A stretch of 62,623 nucleotides of DNA, filler included, from an uncultured bacterium (GCA_964499705.1; 5 parts of 5 records of this genome joined end to end with filler, not necessarily neighbours in it); one strand, 5' to 3'; shown: positions 3,001 through 61,119, counted from the first letter of the whole stretch. Notes: generated from the sequence alone by a model not told the origin. A program made the numbers and translations.

Positions 3001-5120
3001 TCGATACGTATTATTGGAGAGTGCTGGCCGAGGACGAGCTGGGAAATATCTCCGTGACCAGTTCCGAGTCGTTCCGCGTCATGGCGCCCGCGGAGACCGT
3101 TCCGCCGGAAACATTCGCGCTCCTTGCACCCGCGCAAGGGACGGAGACCAGCGCAACGACGGTAACGTTCACATGGAGCACGGCCAATGACTCGTCACCT
3201 CCGATCACATATCGCCTCATCGTCGATACGGACATGACCGGATCGTACGTCGTCGACACATCGATAGTGACAATCACGACGGCAACGGTGAAGTTGCCCG
3301 CGAACGACACTTATCTCTGGCGAATCATCGCGCGCGATGTGAATGCGAACTCGACGACGGTCGGCGATTCGAGGCTTGCGGTCGATACCTCTCCTCCGGG
3401 CCCCGCGAATCCGATCTTCCCGATAAAGGGAGATCGCGTCTTTTCGCCGACAATGCTGATGTGGAACGCGTCGTCCGATTCCATTTCCGGCATCGTAAGA
3501 TACCGGATCCAGATCGACACGAGCGGATCATTTGTCGCGCCGCGTGTTGACAGTTGGCAGTTCACATCAGCGGATACGACGGCTGCTCTGGAGTCGGGCA
3601 TCTTCTACTGGCGCGTTCTCGCGTACGACGATCTTGGTAACACTTCCGCGAGCGCGACGGAAACCTTCACCATGGCTGGTATGGACACTGTCGCGCCGAT
3701 TGTTCTCGGTTCGCCGATATCATCGCCATCGACAGTCAATAATACGGGAACGACGACTGCGGTCATCACGATCACAGTGGATGATTCGAATGCGGTCAGT
3801 GATGTCTTTGTCAATCTCTCGCCGCTTGGACAGGGCGAATCGACTCCGGCGACGCAGGTGACGGATACAGTCTGGACCATCACCATCATCTTCGATTCGT
3901 CGGTGCTCGGCGATACCTATGATCTGAAAGTGACGATCATCGATCCCGCCAACAACACTTCGACGACGACGGTAAGGATCATCGTGACAGACTTGACGCC
4001 CTCCATGACTGATATTGCCTGGCAGCCTATGCGCCAAGAAGAGATGGCGGGAAATGAAATATCGATCATCTCATCGTACGGCGACTCCTATGCTTCAGTG
4101 CGCTACGAATTCCGTCCATCAACAGGTGGCGCGTGGCAGATCGTTCCATCGAATCGTCCGAACCCGGACACTCAGGCACCCTTCTGGGGCATCTACTGGG
4201 TCGTACCGGATACCTTGCCGGATGGATCGTACGACGTTCGAGCTGTCGGTACCGACAAGCTCGGCAACACCGACGCGAATCCTTCTTATCTGCGCATTGC
4301 CTTGAACCGCACGGACTCGACGGTTCAGGAGTATCGTGAAGGATCGACGCATATCAGGCGGCAGAGGTTCTCGCCGTACGAGTCGGGAACGATCATGATC
4401 GCCGACGGCGGAACGAGATTCGACCTGCCGGTCGGCGGCGTCTCCGAGACAGTCTGGATCCGAGTCGCGATCCTCGATACGGCCCCGGAGACCGCGCCGC
4501 TCGGTCCAGGCGTTCAGGCGCCGCTAGGCGGAGCGTTCAGGCTTTTTGCGCGCGAGGATGGAAAGCGAACCTTCGCCAAGGCGTTCACGCTCCGGATTCC
4601 TTATCAGGACACGGATCTCTTGGCCGACGGAATCGGACAGACATCGATCAATGAAGATCGATTGAATCTGTACTGGTGGGATGATGTGACGCACAGTTGG
4701 ATCAGGGATCAGAACTGCCGGGTCGACGCGGTCAACAATGTCGTCATCTGCCAGGTGAACCACTTCACGCTCTTCGCGGTGCTGGCGGGCCAGGATACGA
4801 AGCCGAACCTGCAGAGCCTCATCGTATACCCGAACCCGTTCGTCCCGAACGACGGGCGCGCGGCCAACGGCATGCCGTTCCAGGCGGGCGACCAAACGAG
4901 CGGAATCATCTTCGATGGTCTGACGGCGCAGGCGACAATTACGATCTACAGCGCGGCGGGCCGGCGCGTCGCGGAGATGTCGAAGAACTCAGCGGAAGGC
5001 CGGTTCCACTGGGATGCGCGGGGGGATGATGGAAGAGAGCTGGCGTCCGGCGTGTACATGGCGGTCGTGAAATCCGGTTCCGTCGAGACATCAGTGAAGA
5101 AGATCATGATCATCCGATGA
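3..5120 (+). CDS. Giant Fn3/Ig-like repeat surface protein with ZU5/GPS-like region and C-terminal T9SS-type-A/FlgD-Ig-like sorting domain (5' truncated)
   Basis: Frame is open from position 3 (SLAGVRTL matches the repeat). About 13 repeats of ~95-98 aa (DTTAP...ITFTW...YRLQID...TYFWRVLAxD). C-terminus has YPNPF...ITIYSAAGRRV...WDARGDDGRELASGVY...KKIMIIR. Confidence 0.8.
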   Translation, partial: SLAGVRTLSANDTYFWRVLAVDSATNSTVTVSRQLRIDTTAPTAVVLVTPTSNTDTNVTTITFTWTASTDNVAISGYRLQIDTANTFVSLVADSATGLSLAGTRTLIANDTYFWRVLAIDSATNSTALVSRQLRIDTTAPTAVGLVAPTSNTDTNVTTITFTWTASTDNVAISGYRLQIDTANTFVSLVADSATGLSLAGTRTLIANDTYFWRVLAIDSATNSTASVSRRFHVDTAPPTRPILGTKNGNFSTTLVTETWLPSNDSVTALAFYIVQIDTAGTFTFLVESTTIAYNVTSYLSAVINIDTYYWRVLAYDSAGNFSISSPIVDSFRIISSDTTPPSAFALTAPQDLAETLTTTITLRWADSLDSSPPVRYQVQVDTVGTFFSNIIDTTNLLDTFLVATFPANDTFFWRVIAKDNAGNTVAAGSTRRIVVDTASPVAGSLIAPTTPTDTMLTSITFRWNTSTDTGAGVASYRLQVDTANTFVLLVADSSTGVATSQVLALAANDTYYWRIITADDAGNTVASSSFTLLVDTTPPTTAAPLTPVAGHETRATLISFTWSSSIDALSGVIGYRIQVDTSNTFTNLRADSATGLATAETLALAANDTYYWRIVTADDAGNTVTIAGTRLVVDTRPPNAATNIAPVSGTETRSTTITFMWTSGSDTGTGVNSYRLQIDTSGFFASPLLDSSTGLLTSGTVTLAANDTYFWRMITVDDAGNTAAAASSTILVDTMPPGVPVIDTPARGADTVSPVALQWIGTTDSLSGLSGYRIEIDTTGTFAGPLVKSFFDTGTETTIALAIDTYFWRVIAIDDVGNSTVASSESFRVLSGDTTRPESFPLTAPAHGTETTSTTVTFRWGNSKDSSPPITYRLFVDTDFAGSYAIDTMVTDTFVTVTLPANDTLFWRVIAIDVAGNTTVIGDSRVVVDTRPPTLAGLVSPISGASAVYLTPVPFDWNASFDSIAGLSRYRLQIDRNTTYAAPVYDAYLSAPDTSVNLAIDTYYWRVLAEDELGNISVTSSESFRVMAPAETVPPETFALLAPAQGTETSATTVTFTWSTANDSSPPITYRLIVDTDMTGSYVVDTSIVTITTATVKLPANDTYLWRIIARDVNANSTTVGDSRLAVDTSPPGPANPIFPIKGDRVFSPTMLMWNASSDSISGIVRYRIQIDTSGSFVAPRVDSWQFTSADTTAALESGIFYWRVLAYDDLGNTSASATETFTMAGMDTVAPIVLGSPISSPSTVNNTGTTTAVITITVDDSNAVSDVFVNLSPLGQGESTPATQVTDTVWTITIIFDSSVLGDTYDLKVTIIDPANNTSTTTVRIIVTDLTPSMTDIAWQPMRQEEMAGNEISIISSYGDSYASVRYEFRPSTGGAWQIVPSNRPNPDTQAPFWGIYWVVPDTLPDGSYDVRAVGTDKLGNTDANPSYLRIALNRTDSTVQEYREGSTHIRRQRFSPYESGTIMIADGGTRFDLPVGGVSETVWIRVAILDTAPETAPLGPGVQAPLGGAFRLFAREDGKRTFAKAFTLRIPYQDTDLLADGIGQTSINEDRLNLYWWDDVTHSWIRDQNCRVDAVNNVVICQVNHFTLFAVLAGQDTKPNLQSLIVYPNPFVPNDGRAANGMPFQAGDQTSGIIFDGLTAQATITIYSAAGRRVAEMSKNSAEGRFHWDARGDDGRELASGVYMAVVKSGSVETSVKKIMIIR
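148..670 (+). repeat. Near-identical intragenic tandem duplication, 294-nt period
   Basis: 148-376 and 442-670 read identical at DNA level (cgccgacatcgaacacag...gacagcgcgacgaactc). Confidence 0.85.
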
Positions 5121-6616
5121 GATCGCGGAATCCTCAACCGAATGTGGATGCAGGGGGGGCACGCACCACGGCGGCTCGAAGACGCGACCGTACGATAAGG
5201 GGTTGCTGCATGTGCCTGGTGTTGATTTGTGTTACTGATGCTCATGCATCCGGTTCCAGCGGAGCCGGAACTACAGGCGCGACATTTCTGGAGATCGGCA
5301 CAGGGGCCCGGGCGGCAGCGATGGGAGAAGCAAACGCGGCGTGGGCCGACGATGTGTACGGCATGCATTTCAATCCTGCAGGCATCGCGGCGGTCCGGCG
5401 TCAGGAAGTCGGCTTTGCGCATAACACGCTCTTCCTGGACCTCGACTACGACTACGTCGGATATTTGCATCCGCTGGGCGACGCCTCGTCGCTCGCGGTC
5501 AGCGGAACATACGTCGACCTGGGAACATTCGAGCGACGCGAGATTGTCGCGGGCGGAGGATCGTCCGCCGTTCTCGGGAGCGCCTCCGCATACGATCTCT
5601 CCTTCTCCGTCACCTACGCGAGGACTCTTTCCGAAATCATCGATCTGGGCGGCAGCGTGAAGGTGATTCACGAGACGCTGGACAATTACAGCGCCAGCGC
5701 CGTCGCGGTAGACCTCGGCGCGAAGTGGCGTCCTCCGATCGAAGGCCTGACGGTCGGCCTCTCCGTGTTGAATCTCGGCTCCTCCCTGAAATTCGTTTCG
5801 GCCGGCGACGAACTGCCGATCACGGTCAGAGCCGGCGCCGGATACAGATCGATTAACGGCCGATGGGGGCTTAATTCGGATATCGTGTATGTCAAGAACC
5901 AGGATATCGAAGGCGGGATCGGCGGCGAATTATGGGTCTGGCCGGATCATGTCGCATTCCGGGCGGGCGCGAATTCGGCGAACGACGCGGGCAGCGGGTT
6001 CACGGTCGGCGCGGGTTTCAAGTGGAATGACATTATTCTGGATTACGCCTATGTGCCTTTCGGAGATCTGGGCGATCAGAATCTCATTTCGCTGTCGTAT
6101 CAATTCGGTTCCACGCATGGCGCGCAGCCGAAGCGAAGCAAGTCGACCGAGCGAACGAATATGGAACACACAAGTGTGGAACGCGGACGCATGGATCAAA
6201 CTGTCGCGGAACCCGCCGGCGCGGGTCACGCAAGGACGGATGATGTACGCCCGGCAGCGAATCGAATGCCGGAGGACGTATTGCCGATGCCGGCGCCGTG
6301 GGGGATCGCCCTTTCGCCCTTCGTCTACCGGTCGGGACCGTCGGAATTCGAGTGGATCGGCGGCGCGACTTCGGAAGTGCTCGCAAAGGGATGGAAGGCG
6401 CGCGGATGGGTGAATCCCGTTGCGAGATCCGCGCGTTTCACCGTGGACGGCGAATGTTGGGTCGTGGGCCGGGCTCTGATCCTGGCCGCGAGGCTGTCGG
6501 GACCGGGATTTCTGTTTGAGGCGAGCGTCGGAGGCGACGTGGGTAAGCCGTTTCTCGCATGGCGCGAGCTTCAGGAAAAGATTAATGTAGCTCTTCATGA
6601 TCGCGGCCTCCCTTGA
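5117..6616 (+). CDS. PorV/PorQ-family outer-membrane beta-barrel with C-terminal extension (true start may be downstream, near 5210)
   Basis: GATFLEIGTGARAAAMGEA...DDVYGMHFNPAGIA motif, alternating beta-strands ending LSYQF, AHA signal-peptidase site, directly after a CTD-bearing protein. Confidence 0.75.
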   Translation: MRSRNPQPNVDAGGARTTAARRRDRTIRGCCMCLVLICVTDAHASGSSGAGTTGATFLEIGTGARAAAMGEANAAWADDVYGMHFNPAGIAAVRRQEVGFAHNTLFLDLDYDYVGYLHPLGDASSLAVSGTYVDLGTFERREIVAGGGSSAVLGSASAYDLSFSVTYARTLSEIIDLGGSVKVIHETLDNYSASAVAVDLGAKWRPPIEGLTVGLSVLNLGSSLKFVSAGDELPITVRAGAGYRSINGRWGLNSDIVYVKNQDIEGGIGGELWVWPDHVAFRAGANSANDAGSGFTVGAGFKWNDIILDYAYVPFGDLGDQNLISLSYQFGSTHGAQPKRSKSTERTNMEHTSVERGRMDQTVAEPAGAGHARTDDVRPAANRMPEDVLPMPAPWGIALSPFVYRSGPSEFEWIGGATSEVLAKGWKARGWVNPVARSARFTVDGECWVVGRALILAARLSGPGFLFEASVGGDVGKPFLAWRELQEKINVALHDRGLP

Positions 6617-8942: not shown

Positions 8943-9042
8943 NNNNNNNNNNNNNNNNNNNNNNNNNNNNNNNNNNNNNNNNNNNNTTAATTAATTAANN
9001 NNNNNNNNNNNNNNNNNNNNNNNNNNNNNNNNNNNNNNNNNN
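8943..9042. other. Artificial contig spacer
   Basis: N-run + TTAATTAATTAA (stops in six frames) + N-run. Confidence 0.98.
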
Positions 9043-9545: not shown

Positions 9546-10595
9546 ATGACATCGGCAATTTCAGGAACCATCGTCGCCGTTCAGCACAGCGACGAGCGCA
9601 CGGTGCTGCAGGTAGCATCGGGCGGCAACGGAAGCAAGCGGCAGGACAGCGTCGTCCTGCCCGGACGACGTGAATCGCTCACGTCGGGCAAGGCGGTGCG
9701 GCTCGTCAACTTCGTCCGCTCGCAGGATGGATCGCTCGTTCCAGGCGAGAGCGCCAAGCTCTCCGTCACAAAGCTCGACCCGCCCGCACCGATCGCGGAG
9801 CCCGCGATCGCGCGACCCGAGCCTGCGGAGCAGGAGCAAACTGTCGTCGAGGATCCGGCGCAGACGGCTAACCTCGCACCCGCAAAGTCGGCGGCGATCC
9901 GTCAACACACCGGCGGCCTCATGATATTCAGCGACAAGAAGACACGACGCTCCGTTTTCAATCGCGCCGTCGAAGTCGCTCGCGAGTTCGAAGAGCACAT
10001 CCGCAAGTCCGGTCAGATCATCAAGATTCAGGGCCGCGATTACGTCACCGTCGCAGGATGGTCCCTTCTGCCTGCGTTCGAGTGCGCGAACTGCTACACA
10101 GTCAGCCACACGATCCAGCCCGACGGCACGATCATCGCCGAAGCGATCGTCGAGCGAAACGAGCAGATGGTCTCCCGAGGATTCGGCGCGTGCTCGCAAC
10201 AGGATCGGCCGAAGATCAACGACCGCCTCGCGATGGCGCAGACACGCGCACGAGGATCCGCGCTCAAGGCGCGGTATTCGGTTCTCGTCACTCTCGCAGG
10301 ATACGAGGCGAGTCTCGCGGATGAAGTGGAAGCCGCCGTCGCGCCGGCGCGAGCAGCAACTGCGCCAGTTCACCCGGCACCGGCACCGCAGAAGCCGACC
10401 GCGAAGCAGATCGAGTTCGCTCTGAGCATCTTCGACAACGACCGGTCCGTTCTTCTCCAGGAGGTCGCCAAGACCGGACTCCTCGTCTTCCAGATCGAGG
10501 ACGTCCCCGTCCCGATCCTCAAGGCCATCGTCGAGCGACGCGTTAACGATCGGAAGCGGCAGCGAGCCGAAGCCGCCGCCGCTCAAGCCGCATAG
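9546..10595 (+). CDS. Putative ssDNA-annealing/recombination protein (Rad52/Sak-like core, tentative)
   Basis: AAGGAGG SD; core IKIQGRDYVTVAGW...AMAQTRARGSAL...AGYEASLADEV; Pro/Ala linker and PTAKQI tail motif; lies between ssb and an exonuclease. Confidence 0.5.
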   Translation: MTSAISGTIVAVQHSDERTVLQVASGGNGSKRQDSVVLPGRRESLTSGKAVRLVNFVRSQDGSLVPGESAKLSVTKLDPPAPIAEPAIARPEPAEQEQTVVEDPAQTANLAPAKSAAIRQHTGGLMIFSDKKTRRSVFNRAVEVAREFEEHIRKSGQIIKIQGRDYVTVAGWSLLPAFECANCYTVSHTIQPDGTIIAEAIVERNEQMVSRGFGACSQQDRPKINDRLAMAQTRARGSALKARYSVLVTLAGYEASLADEVEAAVAPARAATAPVHPAPAPQKPTAKQIEFALSIFDNDRSVLLQEVAKTGLLVFQIEDVPVPILKAIVERRVNDRKRQRAEAAAAQAA

Positions 10596-10615
10596 CTCGG
10601 CGAGAAAGGAAGGAG

Positions 10616-10816
10616 GTGATGACCATGTACTCGCCGAGCATCGCGGATGAACACGTCCGCAAGCTCTACCGTATCGCGCGCGTTCGAGGAGTGCCGATGA
10701 CCCGGCTCGTGGACGAGATCGTCGCGGAGTATCTGACGCAATGCGCACAGGAACTCGCCAGCTACGACCCCTCGCTCCACGACCGGCAGTCATCAAAGCT
10801 CAAGCGCGCGGCATAG
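10616..10816 (+). CDS. Small ribbon-helix-helix-like DNA-binding protein
   Basis: GGAGG SD; MYSPSIADEHVRKLYRIARVRGVPMTRLVDEIVAEYL strand-helix-helix pattern. Confidence 0.6.
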   Translation: MMTMYSPSIADEHVRKLYRIARVRGVPMTRLVDEIVAEYLTQCAQELASYDPSLHDRQSSKLKRAA

Positions 10817-10896
10817 AAACAGTCGGCATCGGCCACGCCTCGGCTCTGCTTTTAGCAGAGAGCCGAGGCTCTTACATCTCACAAGGAGGAATCACC

Positions 10897-11658
10897 ATGG
10901 AAACCATGATTCTGCGACCCACGGGCGTTCAGACCTATCTAAGCTGCCCGAGAAAATATTTCTTCGGCTACGTCGAGAACGCCCCGAGACTCGTCTCGGC
11001 CGCGCTCGCGATCGGTAGCGCGTTTCACAAGGCGACCGAGGTCCTCGTCGGCGCGCTCAAAGCCCGCCGGCGTCTGACCGAAGTTCTGCAGGAAGCCGAA
11101 ATCACCCTCGAGGAATCCATCGCCCTCGAGCAGACCCTCGGCGACGCGGATCCCGACGACGACAAGTTCGACACCGCGAAGGATGTCGGCATCAGCCTTC
11201 TCCGCACCGCAGCAACCGCGATCCCCGAAACCTGGGAGCCTGCGATCGTTGAAGGAACCGCAGTGTGCCCGATCACCAATGACATCTCGATCCGCGGCAC
11301 GACCGACCTCGTTCTCACCGACGGCACGATCATCGACTTCAAGACGAGAGCGAGAAAATCCAGCGCCGGCGACATCCGCCGCGATCTTCAGTTCACCGCC
11401 TACGCAATGATCCGCAACCACGCGGACGGTAAGCATGATCAACCGCGCAACCTCGCGATCGTCGAGCTCACCAAGACCAAGATCCCGGCCGTGCACATCC
11501 AGCCGACAAGCCGCACCGCTGAGGACTTCGCTACCTACAAGCAGATCGCCACGAACGTTGCTACCGCGATCAGGGCGGGATTGGATCACCCTTCACCTGG
11601 AATTTTCTGTGGATGTTGCGGTCACCGCAGGCTTTGCCCAATGTGGCGTTGTTCGTAG
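10897..11658 (+). CDS. Standalone Cas4/RecB-like PD-(D/E)XK exonuclease with predicted 4Fe-4S cluster
   Basis: AAGGAGG SD before ATG 10897; SCPRKY, GSAFH, GTTDL, IIDFKT, QFTAY and C-terminal CxxCxxxxxC. Confidence 0.8.
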   Translation: METMILRPTGVQTYLSCPRKYFFGYVENAPRLVSAALAIGSAFHKATEVLVGALKARRRLTEVLQEAEITLEESIALEQTLGDADPDDDKFDTAKDVGISLLRTAATAIPETWEPAIVEGTAVCPITNDISIRGTTDLVLTDGTIIDFKTRARKSSAGDIRRDLQFTAYAMIRNHADGKHDQPRNLAIVELTKTKIPAVHIQPTSRTAEDFATYKQIATNVATAIRAGLDHPSPGIFCGCCGHRRLCPMWRCS

Positions 11659-11772
11659 TCAGTTTGAGATAACGGCGGCCAAAATGGTCACAACACGCCG
11701 GCGCTGAAGACAGCGCGTCAACGATTGCGCCGCCTAAAATGACAGTCGCTCACCCGAAGGCATGATTCGACC

Positions 11773-13485
11773 ATGCTGGCACCAAGGCGGGGAAATATGT
11801 ATCGAGAAAACTTTCCACCTTTCCAACATCACCATTTTACGCCACCATCTTTCACAAACTCTATGAAACACGTCGGCGACATACTGGGTGCGTTCGGTGA
11901 TTTTCCCGGCTACAAAATATTCGACATCAAGCGCGGCGGCTTCGGTATCGTCTACCTCACGTATGAACTTCGTAGATACGCGCTCGACGAAAAGCAATTC
12001 TATGAGCGTCGCGAACGCCTAGGTTGGGGAGCCGATCGCGAATGGCAACCAAAGCCCTGGTGTGTATCAGTCCACAAAACCTTCCGAGAGGATCTTTTGA
12101 CGGAGAGTCTTGCTGAAGAATTTATCAAAGAAGGAAGTATTTGGCTCCGTTTGCCGCAGATTCCTAATGTCGTCGAATTGGAGTTCGTTCAGCGGTTTGA
12201 TGGGACTCCCTATTTAACATGTGAATATGTTCCACCCTCCGGACCAGGGAATAGTCTTCGTGATTGGATTCGGCGAGGTAAAACTGAGGCGAGGCCGGAC
12301 CTTGCCTATCAGATCGCAGTGGGCATGGCTGATATTTCTGCTGCAATGAATACAAAATACGGATTGGAATTCGTCCATTGCGACTTGAAGCCGGACAATG
12401 TTCTGATCAAAAGGAGTTCAGAGCGAATTGGTCCCAAAGTATTGGCGCTAATAAATGATTTTGGACTTTCGAGGCTTGCATACACACACTTTGTGAAAGG
12501 AAAACCGCTCGACTTTCCATTAGGGAACCAGGTTGTCGGAACTCCACACTATATGTCCCCGGAGCAGTGGCTCGGCAGACCATTGTCGAGCCGATCGGAC
12601 ATATATTCTTATGGATGCATGCTTTTTGAAATGTTTACAGGTGGTCCGCCTTTTGAAGGTAGAAACATGGAAGAATTATCGCGCAAGCATTTACTGAAGA
12701 ACTTTGCGCTTCCGAGTGAACTCAACCCATCAGTTCCTCGATACCTCGAAAATATTATCGTAAGATGCCTGTCGAAAGAGCCTTCCGAGCGTTTCTCGGC
12801 GTTCGAAGAGATAGCACGCGAACTTGAAACGGGGGCTTGCGGAGCGCTGGAAAATACACGCAATGGCCTGGCGGCACTCTCGAAACTCTATTCGGAGAGG
12901 CGACACTATACGACACCGAATGGTGAAAGCACGCTTGGTTTTGAGAAATTGATCTCGCAGGCGTGTGGTTTCATCAACCTGCGTTTATTCTCGGAGGCAT
13001 TGACATTCGCTCAGGATGCATTGAACGAGTACCCAAAGATCTGGCTTAGAGGCGAAGGTTATGTGCTTTCTGCTATTGCCTATAGACAATTGAATCAACC
13101 CGAAGAGGAACTTGGCGCACTTGTCGCCGGATCCGCATGGCTCGACTCTAAAATACCGATTGTAATACGGTGGGCGCGCCGGCGCCGCAAATCCACCGAG
13201 CCATGGGAAGATATGCAGTTTTGGTGCTACAAAACGATTCGGCTAATTGAGTCCATGTTCGATATCTATCTCAGAATTCTTCGTTGCTGTGAACAGAGGA
13301 AAGATCGCGATGCGTGCCTAGAGTATTTCTCTGACTTATGCGCACGTCACAAGAATATTTCCGAGGCAATGCTTATCCTCGCAGAATGCCACACGACACA
13401 GTTGGCCCAGCGCATCAAACTGGTCGATCATGTCAGCGAGTCAATGAAAACCGCTCGAGAAATCGTCGGAAAAGTTTCTCTCTAA
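11773..13485 (+). CDS. Hanks-type Ser/Thr protein kinase with C-terminal helical/TPR-like region
   Basis: GGFGIVY, VHK, HCDLKPDN, DFG, GTPHYMSPEQ, SDIYSYG. Start uncertain (11773, 11797 or later). Confidence 0.9.
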   Translation: MLAPRRGNMYRENFPPFQHHHFTPPSFTNSMKHVGDILGAFGDFPGYKIFDIKRGGFGIVYLTYELRRYALDEKQFYERRERLGWGADREWQPKPWCVSVHKTFREDLLTESLAEEFIKEGSIWLRLPQIPNVVELEFVQRFDGTPYLTCEYVPPSGPGNSLRDWIRRGKTEARPDLAYQIAVGMADISAAMNTKYGLEFVHCDLKPDNVLIKRSSERIGPKVLALINDFGLSRLAYTHFVKGKPLDFPLGNQVVGTPHYMSPEQWLGRPLSSRSDIYSYGCMLFEMFTGGPPFEGRNMEELSRKHLLKNFALPSELNPSVPRYLENIIVRCLSKEPSERFSAFEEIARELETGACGALENTRNGLAALSKLYSERRHYTTPNGESTLGFEKLISQACGFINLRLFSEALTFAQDALNEYPKIWLRGEGYVLSAIAYRQLNQPEEELGALVAGSAWLDSKIPIVIRWARRRRKSTEPWEDMQFWCYKTIRLIESMFDIYLRILRCCEQRKDRDACLEYFSDLCARHKNISEAMLILAECHTTQLAQRIKLVDHVSESMKTAREIVGKVSL

Positions 13486-13676
13486 GCGACTCGCTGGGCG
13501 CTCGTCGGGTCCGGCGGAAGAACAGGCGGAATCAGCTGTAACTGATCGTCTGGATGCCGTCCCTATCTCATGTGGCAGGGTTCATTCCTTTGTGGGATAA
13601 TGTTGTTCCATGCGTTCCGCACTCGGCAACAGGATATTACAAGATCCGATTTGGTTCGGATTTGAATGCTTACGCG

Positions 13677-16031
13677 ATGAGTGATCTTTCCCCGGGTATG
13701 CATGTCGCATGGTCAATCGCCGCCTCAGAGGCTACCGCGGCCGGCCATGAGTTCATCGAGCTAGCACATTTGCTTGTCGGGCTACTGAGCTTCGACAAGA
13801 TTCGTGATCGCGATCTTGAGGCGCTGGAACTCGTGGAAGATGATCGCGTCGCTTTTAAAATGGAGCGTACCAAACTTAATGAGTTTCTCATGTCCGTCGG
13901 CGTCGAACCCACGTTACTGCGCCGCCGCGTTCGCAGTGAACTCGGACGCGGCAACGTCGATCGTCGTTCTGCAGGCAAACATCGCAGCAAGGAATGCAGG
14001 TCAGTGTTTTCAGAGGTCGAGTCGCGCGAAATATCTCCGGACGAGGGTACAGCTTGCCTCGTTCTGTGGTCCGCGATCATATTGCATCCAGATGCCTCGA
14101 CCGTGCGCGCCCTTCTAGGATTAAATCTCGCACCAGCAGCACTTCTGTTTGAAGCTACTCCCGTAAGTGACTCTTCGGGTGCTGAGACCCCGCCTCATAT
14201 TGTGGCACCTACTCTCATGAAATACGGTCGCGACCTAACCAAGCTGGCCCTTGCGGGAACCCTTCGACCGTTCGTTGGACGCCGCGATGTGATTCTTCAG
14301 GTCATACAGACGCTCGCCCGGGAGTCGAAGAATAATCCTCTATTAGTGGGCGAACCCGGAGTGGGGAAAACCGCCATCGTAGAGGCAATTGCCCGCAGGG
14401 CTGCTGAGGGTCGTGATCCAGCCGTCCTGGGCGGTAAAAGGATCATAGAGATTAGTATGGGGACACTCGTGTCCGGCACGAAATACCGCGGCGAGTTTGA
14501 GAAAAGAATGACGATGTTGCTGAAGGAGCTGAAAGATAATCCGCATGTTCTTCTCTTCATCGATGAAATTCATACGCTTATCGGAGCAGGTCAGGGTGCC
14601 GGAAACATGGACGCCGCAGATATCTTCAAGCCAGCTCTAGCGCGCGGCGAGATATCTTGCATTGGCGCTACTACCTTAGACGAGTATCGAAAGCACATCG
14701 AAAAAGATCCGGCTCTCGAGCGACGTTTTGAGAAAATTATAGTGCCTGAGCCCTCTCGCGATGAAACGGTGAATATTTTGCAGGGGATACGCGATAAATG
14801 GGAGACGCATCACAACGTCACCATTACGGACGAAGCGATCGAGGCTGCAGTCGACCTCTCTCTAGAATTCGACGCGGATCATCAGCTTCCGGATAAAGCG
14901 ATTGACCTCATTGATCGAGCCTCATCGCGGACGAGAGTGCCGATGCTCTCTTTACGCGCAAATCAGGAGAATGTGATTTCGGAAAAGGCCACTGTCACCG
15001 CCGAGGCCGTCGCTCATGTTCTTGCTGAGAAATGCTCTATCCCACCGGAACTAGTGTCGTCTCATCTTGTGGGAAGCGCCCAGACACGCGTTCTTGGGCT
15101 TGAATTCTTTCTCAAAGCGCGTGTTATTGGTCAAAATCTCGCGATCGAGACGATATGCAATAGCTTGAAAGTAGCGCACGTTGGACTTGGCCGGCGCGCT
15201 GGCCCGCTGGCAGTATTCTTGTGCATCGGTCCGACAGGAGTGGGCAAGACCGAAGTCGCGCGCAAAATGGCTGCGCATCTATTCGGTGATGCCAGCCGCC
15301 TCATCCGATTTGACATGTCGGAGTACATGGAAAAGCACGCGGTATCTCGTCTCATTGGATCACCACCAGGATACATTGGCCATGAGGATGAGGGCCAGCT
15401 AACGGGGTGCCTACGCGCTCACCCATACTCGGTTATCCTCCTCGACGAGATCGAAAAGGCGCACCCGGAGATTTGCGACATCTTTCTTCAACTCTTCGAC
15501 GCCGGTCGTTTAACTGACGCGAAGGGCAGGACGGTAAGCGCACGAAACGCCATCTTCATGATGACGTCTAATATTAGCTCGCGTTCCGAACCTGTTCGCG
15601 CGTTAGGATTCCTCAATGCTGAGCCGAAGGATGAAGTCGCGGAACCCCGAAACGCGCGCGATGGTGACGCTCTCCGTCAACATTTCCGACCTGAGTTTCT
15701 AAACCGCATTACAGAGGTCGTTTGCTTTGGCCCTCTTAACGAAGAATCCACGCGACTGATTCTTCGAATGAATCTGCAGGGTATCCTGGATGTTGCGAAG
15801 AATGATCACGGAATTACATTGCAAATCGACTCCGATGTTGAAGATCTTCTTATGCGAGAGGGGTTCGATTCCCGATACGGCGCTCGCGAGCTTCACCGGG
15901 CGATCGATCGCCTTCTTCGACAACCTCTCGCCGACTTCATCCTTTCCGGACAGAACCGAGAGGCGAAATCGTGCCGCATGACACTGCGGGAAGATCGAAT
16001 CCATCTGATGATTGACCACGGCGGGCGTTAG
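13677..16031 (+). CDS. ClpA/ClpC-type double AAA+ ATPase (Clp N-domain, D1, D2)
   Basis: [74 protein letters not shown] loop. Start inferred at ATG 13677. Confidence 0.9.
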
Positions 16032-16114
16032 TTTGTACGGGTTGATTCTTCCGCGCAGAATTCAGATCCCACGTCCATTATTCAACGATCTTCTCGCGCT
16101 TATTTCGTATCGAA

Positions 16115-19100
16115 GTGACTATGGGCCGCGAATACCAATCTCTCGCTGACGTTCCACATAATTGGGAAGTCGGCGATGTGATTCTCGGCCGCTATGAGGT
16201 TCTCGATGTTTTCACAGGTGGCATGGGCAAAGTTTATCGCGTGTTCAGCCGAGATTGGCGTACCGAGCTGGCTGTAAAATCACCGCGTCCAGAACTCTTT
16301 TCGAGCCTGAATGATCGAAACATGTTCGAGAATGAATGCGCCACTTGGATCCGACTCGGGCTGCATCCCAATATCGTTACCTGCTATTTCGTTACTACGA
16401 TCGGTGACGTGCCGCGCGTCTTTTCAGAATTCGTGGCGGGTGGAAGTCTACATGAGTGGATCACCTCGCGACGGCTGTATGCAGGTAGTAATGATGCCAT
16501 TCTGAACAGAGTTCTGGACATCTCTACTCAAACCGCGAGAGGACTTGGCTATGCACATTCCAAGGGCGTCGTTCATCTTGACGTAAAGCCAGCCAATTTT
16601 CTCATAGCGCAAGACATGACTGCCATGGTGAGTGATTTCGGACTTGCGAAAGCACGTGGCATCCAGTCTTCAGGTCATGGGGTGTCAGCTAAGTCTCACG
16701 ACAGCATACTCCTAAGCTCCGGAGGACGAACTCCAGCCTATAACTCTCCAGAGCAGGCCGCTGGATTGCCTGTAACTCGCCGCTCGGACATCTGGAGTTG
16801 GGCAGTATCAGTCATGGAGATGATAGCCGGGCAGGTGTTTTGGAAAGACGGTCGACACGCGGATCAAGCGTTGCAGCATCTCATCAACGGAGGCTTTCTT
16901 GAATCTCAGATTTCCCCGAGGAGAATTCCGCCAGAAGTATGGACACTAGTGAAGAGCTGCTTAGCCTTGAACGAGACCGATAGACCCCACGACTTCGGTG
17001 TTGTCGTCGATTCTCTTGAGAGTATTTACGCCAAATTATCAGGTGCTCCCTATTTCAGATTGCGGCCTACCCAGCCGGAACTGGATGCCTCAACTCTTAA
17101 TAACAAAGCTCTATCCCTATTAGAAATTGGAGGTCTTTTTGCAACGTCAGACCAGTCTGCCTTCTCGACGATCAGCGAGCTCAGGGATCTTTATCCTGAT
17201 TACCGAATCGGCGAATTGAATGAGATTCTAATGCGGTGGCGTCACCTTAGCATGCCGATTGAAGATCTGAACCGACGTATTGATAATGCGATATGTGATT
17301 CTGGAGATGGCGAACTTCTGGACTGGAGAGTTGCGTTAGAATTAGAGACGCACAACACCAAACGGGCAAATCAGTTTCTATCTGAGTCAGATGCGCCGGC
17401 AGAGCGACGGAACGAACTAGCTCAAGAAATCAGTGACCATTCTCTCTATATACGCCGTGCGCTTGAATCTTTCTTCAATGAGCCCATTGAACTTGATGCT
17501 TCTCACGTAGAAGCATTAATAAAGCGCGTTTTGAATTTCGATGAAGAAGAGGACTTTGATTCACCGCACGCGTTTGCAGCCACTGCTATCGGACTCGCTG
17601 TTATACTTGATTGGCGCAATAAGCAGGTCGCACTAGTTGACCTTCGGCGTGCGGCTTGCCTGCGCCGCATTCAGTTGGAACGCAACTACCAAGTAGTCGG
17701 CATCTCTGAAAACGCGCAGCTGTTTGCAATGGCAGGCATCGTGCCTTCCGATGAAAATGATAGCGGATTGTCGCAATATCGACTTGCCGTCCATTCTGGA
17801 CACGATGGTAGATTGCTCGGCAGTATTGACCATGTTTATCTAAACGTCGGCATCCACGAAATCAAGATCGACGCGGTGACGATAGACGACTTTGGCATTC
17901 GGATCAGCTTGTGGTTGAGCCGCGGCAATGATATTTATGAGGCTGTTCATAATTATGACGACGGTGCACTTACACCATACCGAGTCGATTTCAGAGACAC
18001 GGCTCATTTCCAGTATTTCGATAAAGTAGCGATTGATGGATCGGGCAAGTCAATTCTCTTCGTCCAAGGTTCTCGCTGTTCCGTATGGAGTAATCGGTCA
18101 TCGCAGTCGCATAGTGACGCCTTGGTCAATCTATTGGACACCGACTTATCTGATTTTGCGATTGTCGATTCGTGTACGGATGGATATTTCCCGGGCATGG
18201 AGCCGCCGGTAGATATCGAATCGGCCATCACGCCGGCCCGAGTATTCGATCTCCTCAAGCTACTGATCGACTTGAAGCCTGCTCGATCTACTCATTATCT
18301 TATTTGTCGCCCCGCCAGTATGAATCTGCTTCTCCAACGTCGCCGCGAGCGGGACATTCTTCTCGTTCGTGCGCATGAGGCAGAGCTTAGCAATGACACG
18401 CGAGCGGCTATCGACTACTTATCGCAATGCGCCAGACTTGGGGACAAAGACAGGGAACAGATCTTGGCCAGGCGCCATGCCTTGTTGCGCAAAAAGCAGC
18501 CCATTCGCCTCTCGAATGCCTGGCATGAATCCAGCCACGACGAATATTGGCGCGGCAATATCTTTGGCTTGGATACCACACCTCATAATACGATGGTGTT
18601 TCAATGTTTGCGCGGATTAGAGACTCGTCCACTGCCTTCGCTGCAAGCAAGGAGCGAAATCGCGTTGCCGTTTCACAAAGAGCTACTGATAGGCATTGCG
18701 AAGCTTCCGAATGGAGAGATTCTCGTTTATCGGCATCAACAAGAGGAGCCGTATAGAAATTGGATCTCAGCAACTTCCTTGAATGATGCGCATGAACTTC
18801 ATCACGCTTGGGAGATCGAGCTTGGGGCTGGCCCGGGATGGAATTGGCCGCGCCGAAAGACCTTGCTTATCCGAAATCGACTATTCGTCGAGATAGGGGC
18901 AGGCGTTGTGTGCCTTATCGATCCCGAGGATGGTCGCATTAGACAATCGATTCCGGCCAAAGGCGCAACCGCGAACTTTCTGAAACAGGTTTCGGGGCCT
19001 CGCGGCGAAATCCTCGTTTTCATTTCCTACTCGCCCTGCGGCTTCGAGATTGTCGACTTAGAAGGGCGAGCATTCACTATCCCGGGAACTGCCGTTGAAT

Positions 19101-19528
19101 TACTTAATCGAGACGGATGGATGATCGAGGATATTTCACCTGATATGTCCGCGACTGTGGTCCAACAGAAGGACACCGGTAACCTGCGGGTTTTGCGTTC
19201 ATCGGCGGAGGAATCGCTTGATTTATGGACCATTGATGATTTTACCAAGCATTCGAGAGGTTTTCTGCGGGCTATACCCTATTACGTGTCTATTTCTCCG
19301 TGCGGACGAGCGGTCGCATTCATTTTCTCATGCACCCTTCGAATTGTGAACGCTGTTTCCGGCGCTACGATATTGGACTGGAATTATCCGTGGGGAAAGA
19401 ACGGGCCGCTAATGTTCGACCGCACAAGTCGATGGCTGACGTGTGTTCATAGCGACAACAAATTCGAACTATTTCAGCTCTACTGGGACATCGCTGAGAA
19501 GGAAGAACGAGCTGTCAAGAAGGGGTAA
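16115..19528 (+). CDS. Large Ser/Thr kinase with TPR segment and beta-propeller-like C-terminal region
   Basis: GGMGKVY, AVK, HLDVKPAN, DFGLAK, TPAYNSPEQ, SDIWSW; LNNKALSL TPR-like segment; beta-rich repeats (VAIDGSG, DISPD, SISPCG, FDRTS) ending LYWD. Confidence 0.85.
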   Translation: MTMGREYQSLADVPHNWEVGDVILGRYEVLDVFTGGMGKVYRVFSRDWRTELAVKSPRPELFSSLNDRNMFENECATWIRLGLHPNIVTCYFVTTIGDVPRVFSEFVAGGSLHEWITSRRLYAGSNDAILNRVLDISTQTARGLGYAHSKGVVHLDVKPANFLIAQDMTAMVSDFGLAKARGIQSSGHGVSAKSHDSILLSSGGRTPAYNSPEQAAGLPVTRRSDIWSWAVSVMEMIAGQVFWKDGRHADQALQHLINGGFLESQISPRRIPPEVWTLVKSCLALNETDRPHDFGVVVDSLESIYAKLSGAPYFRLRPTQPELDASTLNNKALSLLEIGGLFATSDQSAFSTISELRDLYPDYRIGELNEILMRWRHLSMPIEDLNRRIDNAICDSGDGELLDWRVALELETHNTKRANQFLSESDAPAERRNELAQEISDHSLYIRRALESFFNEPIELDASHVEALIKRVLNFDEEEDFDSPHAFAATAIGLAVILDWRNKQVALVDLRRAACLRRIQLERNYQVVGISENAQLFAMAGIVPSDENDSGLSQYRLAVHSGHDGRLLGSIDHVYLNVGIHEIKIDAVTIDDFGIRISLWLSRGNDIYEAVHNYDDGALTPYRVDFRDTAHFQYFDKVAIDGSGKSILFVQGSRCSVWSNRSSQSHSDALVNLLDTDLSDFAIVDSCTDGYFPGMEPPVDIESAITPARVFDLLKLLIDLKPARSTHYLICRPASMNLLLQRRRERDILLVRAHEAELSNDTRAAIDYLSQCARLGDKDREQILARRHALLRKKQPIRLSNAWHESSHDEYWRGNIFGLDTTPHNTMVFQCLRGLETRPLPSLQARSEIALPFHKELLIGIAKLPNGEILVYRHQQEEPYRNWISATSLNDAHELHHAWEIELGAGPGWNWPRRKTLLIRNRLFVEIGAGVVCLIDPEDGRIRQSIPAKGATANFLKQVSGPRGEILVFISYSPCGFEIVDLEGRAFTIPGTAVELLNRDGWMIEDISPDMSATVVQQKDTGNLRVLRSSAEESLDLWTIDDFTKHSRGFLRAIPYYVSISPCGRAVAFIFSCTLRIVNAVSGATILDWNYPWGKNGPLMFDRTSRWLTCVHSDNKFELFQLYWDIAEKEERAVKKG

Positions 19529-19560
19529 GAAATGATTCGGGATCACGTATTGTTCTCTCA

Positions 19561-20271
19561 ATGAGCAATCCATCATGGAAGAAGATCATCATCAAGCCGA
19601 ATGCGCTCCAGCACACCGCCTATGCCGACTGGTACCGGTATGGAACCAGTGATCCGGCGGGCGTCCCCATGGTGGTCTACGTTGGTGGCGCGATCCCGAA
19701 GAATACGTACTCCGAAAGGCAAGCCACGCGCCCCGACATTATCGCCGTGGAGTTCGAAAATGCGCGCGAGCTGAATCCGATGGCATGCGTCGATCTTCTC
19801 ATCATTCCGTGCCCACTCAGCATCATGGAGCGCCGCAGCGTGTGGCGCTCTGAATTCCGCGAGCACTTTACGCGGGAACTGCTGCCGGCGATAGAGAACC
19901 GTGAGCCGCTCCGCATGTCCGTTGTCGGATACTCCTTGGGGAGCTATTTCGCAATGTGCCTGTTGGCGGAACGTGCCACTGCTTGCGGTCTTGCAACGGT
20001 CGGGGGAGCCGGTATGCCGGAGGCGCTTCTCGAGAGCGATCCACCCGATCTGCACAAGAAGCGCATCATTTCGTTCTGTAACGAGAACGATCATCTCTTC
20101 GAGATTACGGAAAAATTCAGGAACACTCTGCTTTCGCGGGGCATCCATCTCGAAACAACGAGGCGCGCCGGCGGGCATCCCTTCCGCAATTATGCAGAAA
20201 ACGGCTCGGTGCGAGACGCATTCGCATTTGCCCTCCAGTGCTTACAGAAACGCGGAACGTGGATCGCGTGA
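19561..20271 (+). CDS. Alpha/beta-hydrolase (esterase-like)
   Basis: GYSLG nucleophile elbow, candidate acid residue in NEND, His in GGHPF. Confidence 0.65.
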   Translation: MSNPSWKKIIIKPNALQHTAYADWYRYGTSDPAGVPMVVYVGGAIPKNTYSERQATRPDIIAVEFENARELNPMACVDLLIIPCPLSIMERRSVWRSEFREHFTRELLPAIENREPLRMSVVGYSLGSYFAMCLLAERATACGLATVGGAGMPEALLESDPPDLHKKRIISFCNENDHLFEITEKFRNTLLSRGIHLETTRRAGGHPFRNYAENGSVRDAFAFALQCLQKRGTWIA

Positions 20272-20333
20272 TGCGAATCCAGATCTCGGATTAGAGCGGC
20301 CGTTCACGTAGACAACGCAAACAGGAAATTAAA

Positions 20334-20398
20334 AAGGGTGAAAGAAGGGTGAAAGTCACCTGCGTTTAATGCGTCTGATGGCTTTTATGCGTTCTGAT
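20334..20398. repeat. Tandem direct repeats near the element end (possible integrase arm-type sites)
   Basis: AAGGGTGAAAG x2 (20334-20355) and ATGCGT(T)CTGAT x2 (20369-20398), 50-115 nt from the tRNA junction. Confidence 0.55.
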
Positions 20399-20447
20399 AA
20401 TTCGTAACTTACGCAGTAGCAGGGCACTGGCTAGCCCCGAACTCACA

Positions 20448-20486
20448 TTTACAGCCCGCCCCATTTGGCCGCTTTGGTATCCCTCC
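20448..20486 (-). tRNA. 5' half of tRNA-Tyr(GTA), truncated immediately after the anticodon loop
   Basis: Minus strand GGAGGGA-TA-CCAAAGCGGCCAAATGG-G-GCGGG-CTGTAAA; the expected CCCGC stem partner is replaced by TGTGAG. Confidence 0.85.
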
Positions 20487-20549
20487 GGGTGAGATAAAAC
20501 CAATCCACTATGGTGTTCACTTCGCGCGTTCCGCGAATATGTGGAAGAC

Positions 20550-20578
20550 ATCATACTCATCGCCGGGCATTCTGTCAT
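20550..20578 (-). promoter_or_regulatory. Putative sigma70 promoter of the tRNA-Tyr locus
   Basis: Minus strand ATGACA-N17-TATGAT about 65 nt upstream of tRNA G1. Confidence 0.55.
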
Positions 20579-20608
20579 CATCCGGATGAGATCCGGGTGA
20601 CTAAGGAG

Positions 20609-20637
20609 TTGCATTCCCTCCTGCAAACCATGATAAT
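20609..20637 (+). promoter_or_regulatory. Putative sigma70 promoter, near-leaderless
   Basis: TTGCAT-N17-GATAAT, 8 nt before ATG 20646. Confidence 0.5.
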
Positions 20638-20645
20638 TCTCCGCC

Positions 20646-21434
20646 ATGAATTCCAACCGTTCAGGACAGTCTGACAGCGAACGCGCGCATTTCGACCGGT
20701 TGATCGAGGAACACGGCAGCGTCTGGTGGGGCTCCCGAACGCATTCCGGCAAGAGGCGGTTTGAACTGCGCGCGCGGACGATCGAATCTCTTCTTCGCCC
20801 CCTTGCGAAGCCGGATTCGGTCGCCGGTCCGCTTGTGCTGGAAGTCGGCTGCGGGGCGGCGGCCTTCACGATTCCCCTGTTGCGCGTCATGCCGAATCTG
20901 CGTCTCGTGGGGACCGATATTTCCGAAAAATGTCTCGATCTCGCGCGTCGTGATTGCGCGGAATTTCCGCATGCCCGCTTCTCCTGCGTGGACGCGGAGG
21001 CGATGACTACGGCGGAGCCGTTGGCGGCGGATCGGGGACATTTCGATGCGGTGATCGGCAACGGGAGCCTTCATCATCTCCCGGAGCGCAAGATTCTCCA
21101 GCAGTCATGGGAGATGCTTCGGCCGGGCGGCCTCGTCATCTTCTTCGAACCGAACATGATGAATCCGCAGGTGGCCCTGCAGAAAAACGTTCCTTTTATC
21201 AAGCGGATGCTCGGCGATTCGCCGACGGAGACCGCGTTCTTCCGTTGGCGGCTCAGGAATCTTCTGAAGGAGCTCGGCTACATCGGGATCGTGGTGGAGC
21301 CGATCGACTTCCTTCATCCGCTCATTCCGAGATTCCTGACGGGAGTCGTCGAAAAGATTAGCGCCGGCCTTGAACGCGTTCCGGGCGTCCGCGAATTCGG
21401 CGGCTCGCTCTTAATTAAAGCCGAGAAACGGTGA
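20646..21434 (+). CDS. Class I SAM-dependent methyltransferase
   Basis: VLEVGCGAA, GTDIS, FDAVIG...LHHL, LRPGG. Confidence 0.85.
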   Translation: MNSNRSGQSDSERAHFDRLIEEHGSVWWGSRTHSGKRRFELRARTIESLLRPLAKPDSVAGPLVLEVGCGAAAFTIPLLRVMPNLRLVGTDISEKCLDLARRDCAEFPHARFSCVDAEAMTTAEPLAADRGHFDAVIGNGSLHHLPERKILQQSWEMLRPGGLVIFFEPNMMNPQVALQKNVPFIKRMLGDSPTETAFFRWRLRNLLKELGYIGIVVEPIDFLHPLIPRFLTGVVEKISAGLERVPGVREFGGSLLIKAEKR

Positions 21435-31321: not shown

Positions 31322-31421
31322 NNNNNNNNNNNNNNNNNNNNNNNNNNNNNNNNNNNNNNNNNNNNTTAATTAATTAANNNNNNNNNNNNNNNNNNNNNNN
31401 NNNNNNNNNNNNNNNNNNNNN
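31322..31421. other. Artificial contig spacer
   Basis: N-run + TTAATTAATTAA + N-run. Confidence 0.98.
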
Positions 31422-59396: not shown

Positions 59397-59496
59397 NNNN
59401 NNNNNNNNNNNNNNNNNNNNNNNNNNNNNNNNNNNNNNNNTTAATTAATTAANNNNNNNNNNNNNNNNNNNNNNNNNNNNNNNNNNNNNNNNNNNN
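59397..59496. other. Artificial contig spacer
   Basis: N-run + TTAATTAATTAA + N-run. Confidence 0.98.
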
Positions 59497-61019: not shown

Positions 61020-61119
61020 NNNNNNNNNNNNNNNNNNNNNNNNNNNNNNNNNNNNNNNNNNNNTTAATTAATTAANNNNNNNNNNNNNNNNNNNNNNNNN
61101 NNNNNNNNNNNNNNNNNNN
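61020..61119. other. Artificial contig spacer
   Basis: N-run + TTAATTAATTAA + N-run. Confidence 0.98.

Follow-up and report, generated by a model that had tools for sequence, protein, structure and literature searches.

The window analysed here is a stretch of 62,623 nucleotides (nt) from an uncultured bacterium (GCA_964499705.1), in which several contigs are joined by artificial spacers; the locus described in the following lies on the contig at 9043-31321 only. On this contig, four consecutive genes share one orientation, as a first-pass annotation of the DNA had listed them (Table 1). They encode a Hanks-type Ser/Thr kinase (P0001), a double-AAA+ Clp/Hsp100 ATPase (P0002), a large sensor kinase (P0003), and an alpha/beta hydrolase (P0004). 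The first three may together form a module that couples the sensing of a signal to protein degradation, and this analysis is concerned mainly with them.

Table 1. Features discussed in the text, with their positions in the window (aa, amino acids; ORF, open reading frame; GC3, GC content at third codon positions).
Feature	Position	Strand	Remarks
P0001, Hanks-type Ser/Thr kinase, 570 aa	11773-13485	+	Pfam Pkinase E 2e-30; GC3 0.49
P0002, double-AAA+ Clp/Hsp100 ATPase, 825-aa ORF	13554-16031	+	Pfam AAA, AAA_lid_9, AAA_2, ClpB_D2-small; GC3 0.55
ClpP-docking-type loop ALGF, P0002 aa 683-686	15600-15611	+	aligns with FAGF of S. aureus ClpC
P0003, sensor kinase, 1137 aa	16115-19528	+	Pfam Pkinase E 2e-34; GC3 0.52
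P0004, esterase-family alpha/beta hydrolase, 236 aa	19561-20271	+	GYSLG Ser125, His206; GC3 0.70
PD-(D/E)XK (Cas4/RecB-type) nuclease gene	10741-11658	+	Pfam PDDEXK_1 E 7e-25; PADLOC Cas4 weak; GC3 0.72
Contig spacers N44-TTAATTAATTAA-N44	8943-9042, 31322-31421, 59397-59496, 61020-61119		artificial

P0002 is an intact double-AAA Clp ATPase, in agreement with the first-pass annotation. Its D1 ring contains Walker A at residues 266-273, Walker B at D337/E338 and a pore loop at 310-316, and the D2 ring contains Walker A at 559-566, Walker B at D631/E632 and a pore loop at 604-609; together with the D2-small domain, these are the two AAA+ modules of a class I two-ring Clp/Hsp100 protein. The family alignment begins only at Met42 of the ORF, which makes the ATG at 13677 the probable true start. 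The N-domain, from about residue 42 to 215, is family-specific, and its invariant residues in a 14-member alignment include W53, E59, H72, R123, R124, R127, G133, H143, and R144. Pfam detects no Clp_N domain in P0002; PF02861 is found in most family members, where it is co-aligned with this region, and ClpC aligns weakly. When P0002 was aligned with the ClpC structure, two stretches were obtained that skip ClpC residues 431-469, and the lack of a counterpart to these residues means that P0002 has no M-domain. Alignment with the ClpA structure yielded a single stretch, that is, a ClpA-like layout, and alignments with ClpB break at the position of the M-domain. Within the loop ALGF, G685 and F686 are invariant in all 14 family members, and the kinase-linked Clps of three further loci described below (L139, L140, and L149) retain it as [AP][IL]GF. 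We take this to be the type of loop that docks ClpP.

P0002 does not reach the score of any established Clp family. In NCBIfam it obtains 684.9 bits with the ClpB model (cut-off 1232.1) and 638.6 bits with the ClpA model (cut-off 993.15), and it also remains below the cut-offs for ClpV, ClpK, and ClpG. The members of its own family, from many uncultured lineages, are about 780 aa long and 46-56% identical to it, compared with about 41-44% for generic Clps. A FastTree phylogeny of 59 Clps, rooted at the midpoint, placed P0002, three kinase-linked Clps, and 19 family matches on one side of a branch with a support of 97, and all 36 generic Clps on the opposite side. Of the family matches 19 were included, and of the generic loci the first 30 that had a complete ORF; the Clp of locus L148 was absent owing to a motif filter. 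By these sequence comparisons, P0002 belongs to a distinct Clp subfamily.

The two kinases have all catalytic motifs and, judged by them, are both intact. P0001 has a G-loop at 55-61, Lys102, an HCD motif with Asp204, a DFG motif at 229 and an SPE motif, and it can be aligned with PknB through HRD, DFG, and SPE, that is, through the catalytic and activation segments. Its residues 26-422 can be aligned over 412 aa with a kinase-TPR protein whose gene precedes a ClpN-like gene in locus L142 (29% identity, E 1e-35); in this alignment, about 20 residues are inserted in the N-lobe of P0001. The first-pass annotation had described gene 1 as a kinase-TPR gene; the kinase part of this description stands, and for the TPR part there is the resemblance to the true kinase-TPR protein of L142 in addition to the sole TPR match, a sub-threshold TPR_14 (18.6 bits, cut-off 23.5). 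The C-terminal half of P0001 can thus be called helical and TPR-like by analogy only.

P0003 had been annotated as a 1137-aa kinase-TPR-beta-propeller protein, and this description holds. The kinase occupies about residues 20-310 (GGMGKVY at 35, Lys55, HLD with Asp156, DFG at 174) and is followed by helical repeats (325-473), a beta-rich region (485-677), helices (701-793), and a beta-propeller-like region (797-1126). Pfam gives no match in the C-terminal part, the propellers being invisible to it, and a word-based search found no relatives beyond residue 420. An exhaustive search with the C-terminus among 1.84 billion representatives retrieved 28 relatives, mostly of about 1100 aa and of the same architecture, one of them from a Riflebacteria metagenome-assembled genome (MAG). 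The AlphaFold model based on an alignment of these relatives had a predicted local distance difference test (pLDDT) value of 84 and a predicted template modelling (pTM) score of 0.83. Its best Foldseek matches were tandem WD40 propellers (2ymu, Pwp2, Utp21-type, Apaf-1) and, for the kinase, PknB and PknA. According to this model, P0003 is a kinase-helical repeat-tandem beta-propeller protein.

Genes 1 to 3 are compositionally foreign to this genome, their GC3 values being 0.49-0.55 as compared with 0.65-0.79 in the flanks (measured for the nuclease gene upstream and for eight genes downstream on the contig). All four genes had been described as visibly AT-richer, which is correct for the first three but not for the hydrolase gene, the GC3 of which is like that of the flanks. 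At the left junction, the step in GC content is bridged by short contigs from runs of two different studies (11534-12142 and 11694-12361), and other contigs span the end of the hydrolase gene (19779-20355 and 20053-21143). Because contigs from independent assemblies bridge the junction, the step is not an assembly artefact. For the junction between P0003 and P0004 (19528/19561), no bridging contig piece with 31 letters on both sides was among the pieces listed. Word depth is even over the flanks and the module except for one conserved Clp motif that is common to other organisms. At 15101-15566, the conserved D2 motifs of the Clp gene, it is about tenfold higher in four metagenome runs; contigs of other organisms share this segment, and therefore the depth there says nothing about copy number.

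Recurrence of the kinase-Clp pairing

A search with the N-domain of P0002 in 401 genomes from each of two phyla (802 genomes) yielded 9 and 4 matches, respectively, and the neighbourhoods of 12 of these 13 matches were examined. All three full-length Clps of the subfamily are encoded together with Ser/Thr kinases, in runs of genes that share one orientation. L139 and L140 both have the order kinase-TPR, FHA-kinase, Clp, with Clps that are 48% identical to P0002. The fullest Clp-type version among the loci seen is the tight, co-oriented run L149:9761-19998 on a 5.8-Mb contig of genome G700, which consists of the genes for the Clp (786 aa), a WD40 protein (955 aa), a PP2C phosphatase (269 aa), an FHA-kinase (544 aa), and a kinase-WD40 protein (>837 aa). 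Just downstream of the kinase-kinase-Clp run in L140, a ThiF/E1-like gene (L140:9792-10913) and several small ORFs lie on the opposite strand; they may represent a ubiquitin-like conjugation set.

The N-domain search also led to a second type of system, in which the protease is part of the AAA+ protein. In L142, the gene order is kinase-TPR, a 345-aa ClpN-like protein, an AAA_2-AAA-M41 protease, rhomboid, and FHA-kinase. When compared with the profile of the Clp family (hhalign), the 345-aa protein matched with a probability of 99.3% (E 1.5e-20) and comprises the N-domain and a D1 without a P-loop. The hybrid-protease systems thus carry the N-domain of the family as a separate protein, which ties the two system types together. 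Stand-alone proteins of 345-360 aa are encoded directly upstream of AAA_2-AAA-M41 in both L142 (9894-10931) and L141 (9403-10485); the L141 protein has a weak tblastn match to the N-domain and nothing more. Such a ClpN-like protein looks like a split-off receptor for substrates or adaptors. L141 also contains an Hsp70-family gene (14614-17142) and a gene for a 951-aa protein ending in an FGE-sulfatase domain (10827-13682), and the rhomboid protease gene of L142 is located at 14504-15274; these are variable accessory parts of the hybrid-protease clusters.

The same connection was found starting from the large kinase. A scan of species-representative genomes with P0003 returned 39 loci with kinase domains that are 36-47% identical, and 18 of these contain a Clp-D2-like AAA_2 segment, in 17 cases on the same strand and at a distance of 3-6 kb from the kinase. 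These AAA_2 modules are 34-42% identical to P0002. In L010, genes for an FHA-kinase and PP2C are followed by those for two kinase-TPR-WD40 proteins, then by that for an 1169-aa AAA_2-AAA-Peptidase_M41 fusion, and finally by those for an LRR protein and a further kinase. The clade of P0003-like kinases was found in Firmicutes, Chloroflexota, Lentisphaerae/Victivallales, Bryobacteraceae, other MAGs, and on plasmids of Streptomyces and Nostoc. One of these plasmids, the mobilizable, 56.6-kb p057_E of Nostoc sp. C057, encodes two kinases, of which one is P0003-like and 1268 aa long, and, in convergent orientation, a P-loop protein of 955 aa that is not a Clp (L155, 7476-15571). The 'AAA domain-containing protein' next to the two Nostoc plasmid kinases was considered as a Clp partner and rejected; it is not a Clp. 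A further, indirect link concerns P0248, a P0003-family kinase, and P0105, a subfamily Clp: each is encoded on a JGI contig with a length of 11,158 bases, and the two contigs are probably one and the same.

Could an additional Clp paralogue for general proteostasis have come to lie by chance between two signalling kinases on an imported fragment? Promoter and terminator scans gave no more than chance-level results (at or below shuffle expectation), and kinases of the P0003 clade often stand alone, both of which would suit unrelated neighbours. However, three further settings at the phylum level show the pairing, with differing gene orders, the subfamily of the Clp stands apart, and the controls are near zero. 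The six remaining N-domain matches, which were weak, belong to ordinary ClpB/C loci, none of which has a kinase. Among 80 loci of generic Clps (988 kb), a kinase match was present in three, each time weak and on the opposite strand. These 80 loci (Clps with 33-43% identity) stem from a metagenome scan with P0005, the closest relative of P0002, which returned generic Clps alone and did not recover P0005's own contig. Chance neighbourhood is therefore very improbable. The first-pass annotation had named conserved kinase-Clp synteny as one way to check its proposal, and such synteny is indeed present in L139, L140, and L149, as compared with 3 of the 80 generic loci. As far as sequence and gene order can tell, the recurrence in unrelated phyla together with a dedicated Clp subfamily supports the view that the Clp ATPase and the kinases function as one unit.

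Interpretation and alternatives

Genes 1-3 (11773-19528) could be a horizontally acquired module in which sensor kinases direct the unfolding and ClpP-dependent degradation of proteins, a reading to which we assign a probability of about 0.5. The kinases would bind a protein signal through their helical repeats and tandem propellers and, once active, would place phosphates on Ser/Thr residues of a target, an adaptor, or the N-domain of the Clp itself. The M-domain-free Clp hexamer, with its LGF loop and the family N-domain, would engage the marked protein and feed it to the host's ClpP. We infer the interaction of P0001, P0002, and P0003, phosphorylation as the targeting signal, the dependence of degradation on ClpP, and the identity of the trigger. 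The parts that recur are large repeat-bearing kinases, in the relatives also an FHA-kinase and PP2C, and either a Clp or a ClpN-like protein with a protease-fused AAA+ module. The logic of sensing, phosphorylation, and unfolding or degradation outlined in the first-pass annotation would fit this gene content, with an AAA+/M41 protease in the place of the Clp in the relatives.

Several observations weigh against the proposed module. The subfamily neighbourhoods are few (four including the window, and one inferred), and no kinase match lies within 20 kb of the hybrid-protease-type L141, with its Hsp70 gene, or of the 901-aa Clp of L148. For 21 of the 39 P0003-like loci an AAA+ partner was not seen within the DNA examined, and P0003-like kinases stand alone on Streptomyces and Nostoc plasmids, the Streptomyces plasmid kinase having no partner alongside. 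The FHA-kinase and PP2C of the relatives are missing from the window, the circuit of which may therefore differ from theirs. Finally, the role of the invariant basic patch RRxxR...HRS of the N-domain as a candidate phosphate reader is pure conjecture by analogy; we presume a likeness to the phospho-arginine sites of the ClpC N-domain. A predicted complex of P0001 and the Clp N-domain scored 0.00 in a run without controls, which speaks neither for nor against binding.

A different output would be conceivable, namely that the Clp does not deliver proteins to a protease, but acts as a kinase-regulated remodelling chaperone that assembles, disassembles, or resets kinase-propeller complexes or their targets in the manner of MoxR or ClpB. 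AAA+ chaperones paired with propeller sensors occur in systems described in passages of PMC7159879, and an Hsp70 gene is present in the related locus L141. However, P0002 has the conserved GF loop that typifies partners of ClpP and lacks a ClpB-type M-domain, and in the sister systems the AAA_2 module is part of a fusion with an M41 protease. A pure remodelling function thus appears distinctly improbable. In the sister systems, the Clp is replaced by a ClpN-like protein and an AAA_2-AAA-M41 protease, and because a self-contained protease can take its place, we consider proteolysis, and not disaggregation, the most likely output.

The main rival to the unfold-and-degrade module, and in our view an unlikely one, is an anti-phage or conflict system, as the first-pass annotation had proposed. 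Propeller and TPR sensors would detect a protein of the invader, the kinases would fire, and the Clp would degrade phage proteins or, in an abortive infection, essential host proteins. The sporadic distribution (full-length subfamily Clps in 2 of 401 and 1 of 401 genomes), the foreign composition of genes 1-3, the tandem paralogues of the sensor kinases (at least two copies in 13 of the 39 loci), and the presence of P0003-like kinases on plasmids are all consistent with such a role. In addition, PADLOC returned matches to mad6 (E 3e-43 and 9e-48), PDC-M37B (E 1e-31), DolB (E 1e-27), and PD-T4-6 (down to E 9e-43). The passage of PMC11514479 on Dodola describes DolB with a ClpB domain, and published conflict systems combine an AAA+ chaperone, a beta-propeller, and kinase/FHA/PP2C parts, according to passages of PMC7159879.

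Against a defence function stands, first of all, the nature of these PADLOC matches, which are at the domain level: they cover the kinase core alone, or 120-150 residues of D2, without partner genes, and the PD-T4-6 models match the kinase core here as they would for any Hanks kinase. The stand-alone kinase Stk2 is said to act in defence. The DolB model is covered just at positions 137-289 of 375, with no match to DolA among the matches listed. For PDC-M37, the B model alone matches, partially and on D2, and no A model appears among the matches listed (for the kinases, the best 25 of 30-34 families). NCBIfam MAD6 reaches 67.8 and 85.6 bits, far below the cut-off of 460, and the mad2 and mad8 matches are partial and at the domain level. 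A MADS-like island composed of a nuclease, kinases, an ATPase, and a methyltransferase was considered and rejected; all matches are partial and far below the cut-offs. Neither PADLOC nor NCBIfam thus matches any described system as a whole, in line with the statement of the first-pass annotation that it did not recognise the combination as a named system. Second, the genes next to the module in the window and in the related loci belong to metabolism or signalling, with no known defence genes recognised in these flanks; in the related loci they encode an MFS transporter, a SpoIIE phosphatase, a ThiF protein, a desaturase, a PAS-GAF-HD protein, and glycosyltransferases. Third, PP2C and FHA in the relatives look like reversible regulation, and phage records yielded just weak generic kinases. 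The claim of a defence system is therefore unsupported.

If the unfold-and-degrade reading is correct, a dedicated Clp subfamily that travels with sensor Hanks kinases across phyla would represent a general coupling of signals to proteolysis. We infer that this coupling is portable, and the interchangeable protease-fused form in the sister systems points in the same direction. That kinases can tag proteins for Clp proteolysis is known in principle from McsB-ClpC. To our knowledge, the cases in which phosphorylation is an established degradation tag in bacteria are limited to phospho-arginine (McsB-ClpC) and a few individual substrates of Ser/Thr kinases. A more far-reaching version, which we regard as doubtful, would be a bacterial machine for Ser/Thr phospho-degrons, in which the patch of the Clp N-domain reads pSer/pThr set by ligand-gated propeller/TPR kinases and hands the protein to ClpP. 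Such a machine would be a mobile, ubiquitin-free counterpart of kinase-triggered proteolysis in eukaryotes, maybe an immune or suicide switch, and the AAA_2-AAA-M41 hybrid systems would be its self-contained form. Whether it served immunity or regulation, either would give a role to the giant kinase-propeller family of unknown function, and the module has the advantage of being a defined three-gene cassette with clear point mutants. In full-text searches, which covered the running text of articles, no description of a Hanks kinase-Clp gene module was found. PMC13622651 was considered as a prior description and rejected, because it concerns a MoxR/vWA-type Esr pathway.

The hydrolase gene, the flanks, and the window

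A gap of 32 bases separates gene 3 from the gene for P0004, and the two may share a transcript. Its annotation as an alpha/beta hydrolase was correct: the protein is of the esterase type, its Ser125 (in GxSxG) and His206 are invariant in four of four sequences, and its fold matches alpha/beta hydrolases with TM-scores of 0.76-0.80 (Foldseek E 1e-8), with the Pfam family Esterase (PF00756) at 16.5, below the cut-off of 22. Only three relatives were found, which are 35-37% identical, and none of the related loci searched contains a homologue. Because of its host-like composition, its absence from related loci, and its rarity, P0004 is probably a resident neighbour, a bystander outside the module, and not a component of the system as had initially been assumed.

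Upstream, the module is preceded by the PD-(D/E)XK nuclease gene, which has a host-like composition; it is a neighbour, and membership in the module is only conceivable. The contig also encodes a methyltransferase, a deacetylase, a formyltransferase, a DtxR-type repressor, a luciferase-like oxidoreductase, and a debranching enzyme. The first-pass annotation had placed the genes in the cargo slot of an integrated element, which is not borne out by the contig: no tRNA gene was found at 9043-31321, no integrase or recombinase family was detected in the flanking ORFs in comparisons with Pfam, NCBIfam, PADLOC, and PHROGs, and att-like flanking repeats were just short, imperfect matches at the chance level, none of them convincing. 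The contig begins merely 2.7 kb upstream of the module, which limits any view of the left border. PHROGs matched solely an exonuclease family (the PD-(D/E)XK gene) and the formyltransferase among the flanking ORFs. Two long ORFs that overlap on opposite strands, at 9546-10595 (plus) and 9561-10796 (minus), have no match in Pfam, NCBIfam, PADLOC, or PHROGs and lie in a region of strong positive AT skew.

The spacers carry stop codons in all six frames. They join separate contigs, and therefore gene neighbourhoods must not be read across them; because of the spacer at 8943-9042, the DNA to its left is not known to adjoin the locus. The surface protein encoded at 15-6616 of the window exceeds 1700 aa in length and contains Ig, fn3, SusE-like, and FlgD_ig-type C-terminal domains; its gene overlaps the start of a PorV-like gene. 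Both belong to another contig and are not known neighbours of the module. Public sequencing runs that contain DNA of the window bear the label groundwater metagenome.

Comparison with known systems

MoxR-vWA-beta-propeller and FtsH ternary conflict systems have been described (Kaur et al. 2020, PMC7159879). In the passages of that paper on Clp, FtsH, and protein kinases, no pairing of Hanks kinases with Clp appears. The systems presented in these passages resemble the module in that they join an AAA+ machine with beta-propeller sensors and kinase/FHA/PP2C parts and are patchily distributed, but the module contains neither MoxR nor a vWA protein; the bpMoxR model reached 19.9 bits (cut-off 27), for the P-loop only.

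With ClpA, ClpC, and ClpB, P0002 shares the two AAA+ rings, the pore loops, and the D2-small domain. It differs from ClpA in that the equivalog score is not reached and in its separate branch of the tree, although the layout and the GF loop are ClpA-like. It differs from ClpB in lacking a long coiled-coil M-domain and in a score below the cut-off. In contrast to ClpC, it does not have the short M-domain to which MecA and McsB dock, and its N-domain is too divergent for Pfam Clp_N.

In the McsB-ClpC(P) system, the genes for a protein kinase and for a ClpP-docking Clp ATPase are neighbours, the N-domain of the Clp reads the phosphate, and phosphorylation is the degradation tag. This phospho-arginine-dependent degradation reportedly operates in Bacillus and other Firmicutes (Fuhrmann 2009; Trentini 2016). 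The module described here likewise has kinase genes beside a Clp ATPase with a ClpP-docking-type loop. However, its kinases are Hanks-type Pkinase proteins with large sensor repeats and not McsB guanidino kinases, it lacks McsA and CtsR, and no other type of kinase is present among the neighbours.

A further parallel is found in the clusters with a hybrid Clp-D2/FtsH/M41 protease (L010, L141, and L142). They differ from the module in their AAA+ component, P0002 being a full Clp that has two rings and a ClpP loop and no M41/FtsH-type module, and an AAA_2-AAA-Peptidase_M41 fusion ORF does not occur on the contig of the module. They also differ in their accessory genes, and the window is devoid of FHA-kinase, PP2C, LRR protein, Hsp70, and rhomboid genes. 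Yet the large kinase-TPR-WD40 proteins of both kinds of cluster fall into one clade (36-47% identity), both kinds have a kinase-TPR gene directly upstream of the ClpN-type module, and their AAA_2 modules are related (34-42% identity).

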